DNA of 64,000 bases from Desulfovibrionaceae bacterium (GTDB taxonomy: Bacteria; Desulfobacterota; Desulfovibrionia; Desulfovibrionales; Desulfovibrionaceae). The notes under the pieces were generated by a model. It made no database searches, was not told the origin of the DNA, and saw only the letters and a program-made list of their open reading frames with translations. Of the stretch, positions 42,647 to 46,112 are shown one piece after another. How positions within the stretch are numbered: position 1 is the first letter of the stretch; each line of letters opens with the position of its first letter. Both the position numbers and the translations under genes were made by a program. The stretch is taken from assembly GCA_963674955.2 (NCBI GenBank), contig CAXXKR010000004.1, positions 1,017,804-1,081,803 on the forward strand, written 5' to 3'.

Positions 42647-43369
42647 ATGTTTAGAGCTATATTATTCTACATCCTTATCTTACCTTTCACCGCATGGTAC
42701 AGCCTGCGCGCCCTTGCCAGCATCCTATTCAACAAGGGCAAAATTCACGAGAACTGGGCCGGAAGGGTCTGGGGCAAAAGAGTCGTCGCGCTCATGGGCC
42801 TGGATGTGGAGGCCGACCTTTCCAGCATCGAACCAAACGGCCACTACGTCTTCATGTCCAACCATCTGAGCAACTTCGACATCTGGATATTGTCCTCCCT
42901 GCTCTGGGACAACCGCCTGCGCTTCGTGGCCAAGAAAAGCCTTTTCGACATACCCCTTCTGGGCAGGGCAATGAAAAAAGCCGGCCACATATCAATCGAC
43001 AGGGAGAACCGCCGCTCGGCAATGAAAAGCGTGCAGGACGCCGTGGACTCGGCAAAAAGCGGCATATCGCCGCTCATCTTTCCCGAGGGAACCAGAAATT
43101 CGGCCCCTGACGAACTCATGAAATTCAGGGTGGGAGGCATGATACTGGCCCTGAAATGCGGATTGCCCGTGGTGCCGCTGATCATAACCGGGACGGACAA
43201 GGTCCTGCCCAAAAAAAAGATTCTTGTCCGGCGACGCCCTGTGCGGGTAAAGGCCCTCAAACCCATAGACATTTCAAAATACACCCTCAAGGACCGCGAC
43301 AAATTCAAGGACGACATGTGGACGATAATGAACAAGGCCTATCTGGAGATGCTCAATGAGCGAAGCTGA
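42647..43369 (+). CDS. plsC: 1-acyl-sn-glycerol-3-phosphate acyltransferase
   Basis: It has the acyltransferase motifs NHLSNFD (HxxxxD) and FPEGTR, plus an N-terminal membrane helix. Confidence 0.8.
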   Translation: MFRAILFYILILPFTAWYSLRALASILFNKGKIHENWAGRVWGKRVVALMGLDVEADLSSIEPNGHYVFMSNHLSNFDIWILSSLLWDNRLRFVAKKSLFDIPLLGRAMKKAGHISIDRENRRSAMKSVQDAVDSAKSGISPLIFPEGTRNSAPDELMKFRVGGMILALKCGLPVVPLIITGTDKVLPKKKILVRRRPVRVKALKPIDISKYTLKDRDKFKDDMWTIMNKAYLEMLNERS

Positions 43370-45014
43370 AAAATTCCTGACCCTCTATCCCTTGGGCGGG
43401 CTCGGCGAAATCGGGCGCAACTGCATGGTTCTTAAGACAAGGGAAACAATGGCTGTGGTGGACTGCGGACTCATGTTCCCCGACGACTACCTCTACGAGT
43501 GGACATCGCCATCCCCCGCTTCGACATGATCATCAAAAACAAAGACATCCTCAAAGGCATCGTCCTGACCCACGGCCATGAGGACCACATCGGAGCCCTG
43601 CCCTGGCTGCTGCCATATGTGGACGCCCCGGTCTACGGTTCGCGGTTTACCCTCGGACTGGTGGAAAACAAGCTTCGTGAGCACGATCTCCTGAACTATG
43701 TCGATTTGAGGGAAGTCAAACCCAATGAACGAGTCCAGCTGGGCGATCTGGCCTTCAACTTCTTTCCGGTCTGCCATTCCGTGATCAAGGGCTACGGGCT
43801 GGGCATCGAGACCCCTGTGGGCCGCATGGTGCACACCGGGGATTTCAAGATCGACAGAAACCCACTGGACGGCCACGCCACAGACCTCAAGGCCTTCAAG
43901 AAATTTTCGGAACCGGGCGTCAAGCTGCTCATGTCCGATTCGACCAATGTGGAGCGTGAAGGCTTTGCCCTGACGGAGAGGGAAATCAAGTCCAGTCTGC
44001 GGGAAATATTCTGCCAGCCCCACGGACGCATCCTGGTCACCCTCTTTTCCAGCCACATCCAGCGCATGCAGGAAATATTCGATCTGGCGGAAGCAGCCAA
44101 CAGAAAGGTCGGGGTCAGCGGCAAGAGCCTGCTCCGAAACATCGAACTGGCCAGGGAACTCGGCTACCTCAAGGTTCCCGGCAACACACTCATAAACGTT
44201 GACGAGATCAACAACTACGCCGACGACCAACTCGTCCTGCTCCTGACCGGATCCCAGGGCGAACCACTGTCCGCCCTGACGCGCATCTCCCAGGACGAAC
44301 ACAGGCAGGTCTCCATCAAGCCGGGCGATCTGGTGCTCTTGTCCTCGCGCTTCATCCCCGGAAACGTCCGGGCCATCACGAAACTCATCGACCGGCTCTA
44401 CAAGCTGGGCGCGGAGGTGTTTTACGAAAGGGTCCAGGCCATCCACGCTTCGGGCCACGCCCACCGCGAAGAACTGAGAATCATGCTGGACACGGTCAAA
44501 CCGACCTATTTCATCCCGGTTCATGGCGAATACCGCCACCTTGTCAAACACAAGCGGCTGGCGGAGGAAAGCGGAATCGCCGAGGAAAGGGCCATCCTCC
44601 TCGAAGACGGAATGCCCGTGACCTTTTTAGAACAGGGAGTGAGATTCGAGGAAGCCGTCTCGGCGGACATGATCCTGGTGGACGGAAAAGGCGTGGGCGA
44701 CGTAGGCCAGGCGGTTCTCAAGGAACGCCAGCTTCTGGCCGGGGAAGGCATGGTCATCGTCCTGCTGGTCGTCGACAAGGCCACGGGCGAAATAACCCTG
44801 GGACCGGATATCGTCTCCAAGGGCTTCGTCTTTGAACAGGATTATTCGCACCTGCTTGGAAGACGCCAAATGCATAGTGTTGGACGTATTCGAGAACATC
44901 GCGCCCGGAGAGACGAAAAAGCTCAAGGAAAAGATACGCTCGGCCCTGCGCCGCTTTTTCCGCAAGGTTCTGGACCGCGATCCCGTGGTGGTTCCGCTGG
45001 TCATTACAATGTAG
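43356..45014 (+). pseudogene. rnj: Ribonuclease J, reading frame interrupted by two 1-nt frameshifts
   Basis: The gene reads in three pieces:
- Piece 1 (from 43356): MSEAEKFLTLYPLGGLGEIGRNCMVLKTRETMAVVDCGLMFPDDYLY, then a stop at 43527-43529.
- Piece 2 (from 43499, shifted frame): VDIAIPRFDMII...GIVLTHGHEDHIGALPWLL ... GFVFEQDYSHLL.
- Piece 3 (from about 44859, back in the first frame): EDAKCIVLDVFENIAPGETKK...VVVPLVITM, stop at 45014.
Together they form a full-length RNase J. Confidence 0.75.
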
Positions 45015-45164
45015 CGGTTCTCGATTTTTTTCCTTGCCTTTTTTATGTTATAACCGTAGAAGTTTCTGTTTCAAAATTCACACATCTCGGATGGACCCTG
45101 GGTAACCCCAGTGAATCGGGGCGGTTCATAATTACCGGGATGGAGGAAAAACCCAGGAGGAATA

Positions 45165-46112
45165 ATGGCTTACATCAGCATGAAACAAATGCTGGAGACC
45201 GGTGTTCATTTCGGTCACCAGACCCGCCGCTGGAATCCCAAGATGCGCCCATACATATTCGGGGCCCGCAACGGAATCCACATCATGGACCTGCAGCAAA
45301 CCGTCAAGCTCTTTCAGACCGCCCACGACTACGTTGTCGACGCGGTGGCCAAGGGCGGAAAGGTCCTGTTCATCGGCACCAAGCGCCAGGCCCAGGAGGC
45401 CTTCAAGACCGAGGCGGCCCGAAGCGGGATGTACTATGTCACACACCGCTGGATGGGCGGCACACTGACCAACTTCCAGACCATCAAGCACAGCATCGAC
45501 CGCCTCAAGACCCTTGAAGAGATGTTCGAGGACGGTTCCATCAGCAAATTTCCCAAAAAAGAAATCGTCTGCATGAATCGCGAGGTCAAGAAGCTCAATA
45601 ACGCCCTAGGCGGAATCAAGGACATGACCGAACCGCCCAAGGTCGCCTTCATGGTCGACCCCAAGCGCGAACACATCGCGGTCATGGAATGCCGCAAACT
45701 GGGCATCCCCATTGTCGCGGTCGTCGACTCCAACTGCGATCCGGACGTGATCGACTACATCATACCGGGCAACGACGACGCCATCAGGGCCATCAAGCTC
45801 TTTGCAACCCACATGGCCGATGCCTGCATCGAAGGCGCGGCCCTTTATGAAGAATACAAGGCCGGTGAGGCCAAGAAGGCTGCCGAAGAAAGCAAGAAGG
45901 CCGCTGAAGAGGCCAAGAAAGCCGAGGCCGAGGCCAAGAAGTCGGAAAAGCCCAAGAAGGCCGCTCCCCCAAAGCCTGGTCCCAAGAAGGCCGCCCCCAA
46001 AAAGGAAGCCAAGGCTGAAGACAAGCCCAAGGCCAAAGAAGAAAAGAAAGCTGAAGCCGAGCCCAAGGCCGAAGCCAAGGAAACCGAGACAAAGACCCAG
46101 GAGGACGCTTAA
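45165..46112 (+). CDS. rpsB: 30S ribosomal protein S2 with K/A/E-rich C-terminal extension
   Basis: [39 protein letters not shown] is canonical S2. About 85 aa of AKKAAEE/KPK low-complexity tail follow. Confidence 0.95.

Follow-up and report, generated by a model that had tools for sequence, protein, structure and literature searches.

The RNase J family (TIGR00649), of which RNase J1/J2 of Bacillus subtilis are the studied type, comprises proteins of about 552 aa with the motif HGHEDH, in which a metallo-beta-lactamase domain, a beta-CASP domain, an RMMBL domain and a C-terminal domain follow one another. Several bacteria that also possess RNase E can do without RNase J. Disrupted reading frames, for their part, have been described in different settings, such as the compensated frameshift pairs of real genes, in which a second indel of opposite sign returns the sequence to frame, and the transcriptional slippage of some endosymbionts. 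In addition, residual indels that fragment genes are a recognised error mode of long-read bacterial assemblies (PMC12007338, Kastor; PMC8442456, Trycycler).

The locus considered here lies in a window of 64 kb, i.e., the whole stretch of DNA that was analysed, taken from a source genome assembled in 8 contigs and 3.16 Mb. Judged from its sequence, it is an ordinary single-copy RNase J gene (rnj) of about 552 aa, located between a plsC-like gene and rpsB-tsf, and it shares with the family the domain order and the HGHEDH motif; the gene is canonical and has no novel feature. Unlike that of any relative, its reading frame as assembled falls into three segments, separated by one-base indels of -1 and +1. 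The elements of the locus, all on the forward strand, are the following:

42647-43369, forward: plsC-like gene (1-acyl-glycerol-3-phosphate acyltransferase-like), 240 aa, from the list of open reading frames; upstream context
43356-43496, forward: RNase J piece 1, codons 1-47 (MSEAEKFLTLYPLGGLGEIG...DDYLY), frame 0, aligning to the N-termini of intact relatives
43497-43498, forward: junction 1, two bases (GA) where all relatives have the Gly codon GGC, from the DNA alignment with 9 relatives
43499-44857, forward: RNase J piece 2, 453 codons, -1 frame (frame 2), from translation, Pfam and NCBIfam
43527-43529, forward: TGA that stops translation from the rnj ATG after 57 codons in the sequence as deposited, from reading of the open frame
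43571-43588, forward: HGHEDH, i.e., the HxHxDH zinc-binding motif of the metallo-beta-lactamase fold, identical in all relatives
44858-44859, forward: junction 2, GG in place of the single G of relatives (CTN-GAA), from the DNA alignment
44858-45517, forward: out-of-frame tail of a mechanical 672-aa open reading frame, running past the rnj stop and through the intergenic region into the 5' portion of rpsB
44859-45014, forward: RNase J piece 3, 51 codons (EDAKCIVLDVFENIAPGE...VVPLVITM) and TAG, again in frame 0, from translation and Pfam
45165-46112, forward: rpsB (ribosomal protein S2), intact and followed by tsf, from the list of open reading frames; context

The orthologue of one relative (G013) aligns to the plsC-like gene at 42647-43351 without stops, and the 3' end of the plsC-like gene contains the ATG of rnj; since the two genes overlap by 14 nt (43356-43369), they may be translationally coupled. 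Frame 0 of rnj extends from the ATG at 43356 to the TAC at 43494-43496 and resumes in piece 3, which ends with the TAG at 45012-45014, so the gene as deposited has no uninterrupted reading frame; none of the three pieces contains a stop. A preliminary description of this DNA had already divided the gene into N- and C-terminal pieces sharing one frame and a central, HGHEDH-bearing piece in the -1 frame, with translation from the ATG ending at 43527-43529 after 57 codons, and translation confirmed both points. The 672-aa reading frame (43499-45517) is present and crosses the start of rpsB at 45165 out of frame, and the preliminary description was right to call it an artefact. Its further proposal that one base is missing at junction 1 and one is extra at junction 2 agrees with the alignment described next.

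To place both indels, the DNA of rnj was aligned with that of 9 relatives from the same family and order, in all of which (9/9) the protein is encoded by a single frame of about 550 aa. The deposited letters at the junctions are TACGAGTG within 43480-43520 and CTTGGAAG within 44840-44880. At junction 1 the source reads TAC-GA-GTG-GAC against TAC/TTC-GGC-GTG-GAC in 9/9 relatives, and because the Gly codon is complete in every one of them, one base is missing at 43497-43498. At junction 2 the source reads CTT-G-GAA-GAC against CTN-GAA/GAC/GAG-GAC, again in 9/9 relatives, whose single G indicates that one G is extra at 44858-44859. The two changes are thus GG to G and G to GG, i.e., -1 and +1, and for this reason the 453 central codons lie in the -1 frame with respect to the two end pieces. 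The pair resembles the compensated frameshifts of real genes in that its second indel, opposite in sign to the first, brings the downstream sequence back into frame, but here the indels enclose 453 of the 552 codons, and with them the entire catalytic core, and a stop occurs 10 codons after the first indel; therefore, the pair cannot be a tolerated compensation.

The junctions also bear on whether the ribosome could deal with the gene as it stands, either by recoding, with a -1 shift at the first junction and a +1 shift at the second, or by making a functional truncated product from the GTG at 43499, a split that the preliminary description had listed among its options. Such a reading could appeal to the central frame, which is open and fully conserved, and to the position of the GTG, which falls exactly at 43499. 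Neither rnj junction, however, contains a slippery heptamer or a shift-prone stop context: the pattern X_XXY_YYZ is absent at junction 1 (CTC TAC GAG TGG), while junction 2 (CTT GGA AGA) has neither a stop nor an obviously rare codon. The product from GTG 43499, moreover, would be without residues 1-47 of the fold, among them the conserved LGGLGEIG strand region, and would end in an out-of-frame tail of about 220 aa overlapping rpsB, and so the split product finds no support. Relatives with the same split arrangement, which would have spoken for a genuine variant, number none among the 129 examined. Taken together, we regard recoding or a split product as highly improbable.

The identity of the gene can be followed through its domains. 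Metallo-beta-lactamase matches (PF12706 and PF00753) were obtained in rnj, and piece 2 holds the remainder of that domain, the beta-CASP domain (PF22505, 5.4e-47, covering 2-126/126), the RMMBL domain (PF07521, 4.6e-14) and the first half of the C-terminal domain. This last domain (PF17770) is divided between positions 1-47 in piece 2 and 51-101/102 in piece 3, and its break coincides exactly with junction 2. The scores of all the domains are normal. Piece 2 alone scores 459 bits against TIGR00649, for which the cut-off is 400, so that the HxHxDH motif, the beta-CASP, RMMBL and C-terminal domains, and the family score all identify the gene as an RNase J. The joined protein has 70-77% identity to its Desulfovibrionaceae orthologues, with the ribonuclease J of Salidesulfovibrio onnuriiensis (77%) as the nearest named homologue.

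Comparison was then extended to the best 120 homologues listed, all of which have 549-567 aa in one frame and none of which exceeds 77% identity to rnj. A contig look-up with rpsB for a second assembly of the species found no other copy, and exact-pattern scans over the two junctions, with 0 or 1 additional base permitted, gave no match in metagenome and genome contigs. At 221 near-invariant columns the joined RNase J deviates in only two (N to D and V to I), both conservatively, and 16 of the 120 intact homologues deviate at more of these columns than it does. The joined protein is therefore without sign of decay and within the range of intact homologues. The two indels aside, the gene has the appearance of one under full selection, and either its lesions arose very recently or they are not real.

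A rival possibility is a genuine null allele: both indels would be present in the sequenced strain, or in the dominant genotype of the sample, RNase J would be inactivated after 57 codons, and the second indel would be a neutral later event or an earlier lesion. Both indels are unambiguous in the deposited sequence, several lesions in one gene are expected of a pseudogene, and, as RNase J is dispensable beside RNase E in some bacteria, a real null would be viable. However, the drift implied by two indels in a neutral gene would be expected to leave several substitutions at conserved sites too, and none of the further degeneration of a pseudogene is seen in the 552 codons, with 2 conservative changes in 221 columns and no stops inside the pieces; in addition, the runs concerned have only 1-2 G and are expected to be poor substrates for replication slippage. 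Further evidence on this possibility comes from the rest of the assembly.

In a survey of the other genes, translated ORFs from 2.8 Mb of relative G013 were compared with the source genome by tblastn, and collinear matches that change frame were sought. About 1,175 sense-like queries were retained, with 1.17 Mb aligned, which corresponds to roughly 1,000 orthologous genes and covers about 40% of the coding sequence. The initial matches of the screen included antisense "shadow" ORFs, rRNA pseudo-ORFs, and stop-to-stop ORFs reaching by read-through into upstream genes, all of which were discarded on inspection. There remained about 13 single-copy genes, among them rnj with its two sites, that together contain about 17 frameshifts. 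This amounts to about one site per 70 kb of sampled coding sequence, and by extrapolation the genome as a whole may hold roughly 40 such sites. Besides rnj and one further, weaker candidate, the affected genes are:

C4:1873110-1873997, forward: pstC (phosphate ABC permease), compensating pair 265 nt apart, tblastn; outside the window
C1:524801-526701, reverse: glmS, single-copy, three frames, two same-sign shifts about 90 nt apart; outside the window
C4:1983033-1984989, reverse: transketolase (tkt), one frameshift, tblastn
C1:843403-844651, forward: thiC, one frameshift, tblastn
C4:409665-411043, forward: M18 aminopeptidase, one frameshift, tblastn
near C4:1209930: sigma-54 regulator, frameshift, tblastn
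near C4:1776390: NuoL/Mrp-like subunit, frameshift, tblastn
near C1:679060: HD-GYP protein, frameshift, tblastn
near C4:103520: PerM-like permease, frameshift, tblastn
near C4:601170: family-9 glycosyltransferase (GT9), frameshift, tblastn
near C4:457025: porin-like protein, frameshift, tblastn

The identities of glmS, tkt, thiC and pstC were confirmed with NCBIfam. In pstC, a -1 change near 1873535 (GGC[C]TG or G run) and a +1 change near 1873800 (GGG/CC run) leave about 88 codons out of frame, a stretch over which the original frame contains 3 stops, while the shifts of glmS, GG to GGG and an extra base at AAC[A]TCC, do not compensate each other. Most indels with a readable context are 1-base changes in runs of 1-4 bases, in both directions and mostly of G or C, and replication slippage would not be expected to prefer such short runs. 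A formate-dehydrogenase-like gene at C4:939433 (reverse strand, outside the window) was set aside, its in-frame TGA (HQARI*HS against HQARVCHS in the relative) being a natural selenocysteine codon and no error.

These results qualify the statement of the preliminary description that every other gene readable in the 64 kb is intact, which stood for the 30 orthologues tested inside the window and failed for the rest of the genome. For the same reason, two lesions confined to one gene are no longer conspicuous, as at least 12 other conserved single-copy genes are frameshifted, pstC and glmS twice each. True loss of glmS and tkt in a genome that is 99.9% complete is implausible, and a viable cell could hardly carry genuine lesions of this kind in glmS, tkt, thiC and pstC all together, which counts against a null allele of rnj as well. 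One might suppose instead that the indels are real and that the disruptions of rnj, pstC, glmS and tkt are tolerated or corrected at the level of the RNA or the ribosome, in the manner of the transcriptional slippage of some endosymbionts, though here the G/C runs are very short; to this supposition we attach hardly any probability.

The distribution of the sites is not uniform. Three double-hit genes (rnj, pstC and glmS) among 17 sites have P ~1.5e-4 under uniform scatter, which indicates that the indels come in patches, and the spacing within the pairs is 90 nt in glmS, 265 nt in pstC and 1.36 kb in rnj. Two of the three pairs (rnj and pstC) are compensating. A systematic cause of such pairs, namely a block-wise shift of the consensus, was considered and dropped, because the two shifts of glmS do not cancel and the majority of the other sites lack a partner in their gene.

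The assembly itself provides a view of such patches. The small contigs C2, C3, C6 and C8 each duplicate parts of C1 or C4 at 98.6-99.6% identity, over 0.6-20 kb, and differ from them by clustered 1-2-base indels. One of them, C3, a 99.3% duplicate of part of C1, has against it 7 insertions in 1 kb and 3 deletions in 200 nt, mostly in runs of 2-3 bases; four ORFs are disrupted by these (one aminotransferase-like, one deaminase-like, one MATE-like and one more), each of which (4/4) is intact in C1. Since ORFs intact in C1 are broken in C3, consensus indel errors exist in this assembly, a further point against the null allele. The small contigs also differ from C1 and C4 by about 0.5% substitutions, which suggests haplotigs or strain heterogeneity in the sample, and with such heterogeneity some indels could be real minor-allele variants; this hint, together with the clean 1.36 kb between the two sites, is what the duplicate contigs and the spacing lend to a null allele, which on the whole of the evidence we consider unlikely.

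Two other features of the contigs were recorded. The last 8.2 kb of C1 duplicate C4:905518-913695 at 99.85%, and C6:16300-18314 is a repetitive contig end with many offset self-matches at 75-80% identity, which suggests a tandem array.

As for the type of data, C4 holds two rRNA operons of 5.3 kb that are 99.98% identical, and a contig spanning such repeats suggests a long-read-type assembly. The source genome shares with the assemblies in which long-read indel errors have been described (PMC12007338, PMC8442456) the 1-base indels in short homopolymers that pseudogenize conserved genes throughout, the low-quality duplicate contigs with dense indel patches, and the contigs that run across rRNA repeats. 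Its density of sites is modest, about 1 site/70 kb of sampled coding sequence.

Given that one-base slips affect many other housekeeping genes of the assembly, the break in rnj is most likely a sequencing artefact, and the evidence, i.e., the indels across the genome and the errors of the duplicate contigs, favours the first option of the preliminary description, assembly or homopolymer error. From what was directly observed (the positions of the indels, their absence in all relatives, the lack of gene decay, the scatter and clustering over the genome, and the patches of the duplicate contigs) we infer that the two rnj indels are most likely residual consensus errors and that the gene is intact in the organism. 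Similar indels in indispensable genes and internal signs of consensus indel errors, as an artefact would produce, are both present. Two residual errors in rnj would then stem from a long-read-type assembly with patchy 1-2-base indels throughout, and in the living organism rnj is probably one uninterrupted ORF. Because errors are patchy, two indels in a single gene are unremarkable, and the cancelling of the -1 by the +1 would be a coincidence, with a chance of about 50% once two indels share a gene. The 1.36 kb between the rnj indels are otherwise clean, and compared with the pairs at 90 and 265 nt, the explanation by patches fits rnj less neatly.

The value of these findings lies mainly in the quality control of this assembly. 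RNase J, glmS, tkt, thiC, pstC and about 10 other "pseudogenes" that it contains are probable consensus errors, and as such they offer no basis for inferring gene loss in this organism. If resequencing showed the rnj indels to be real, this organism would be a sulfate reducer with a naturally occurring RNase J null, which would be of modest interest for studies of RNA decay.
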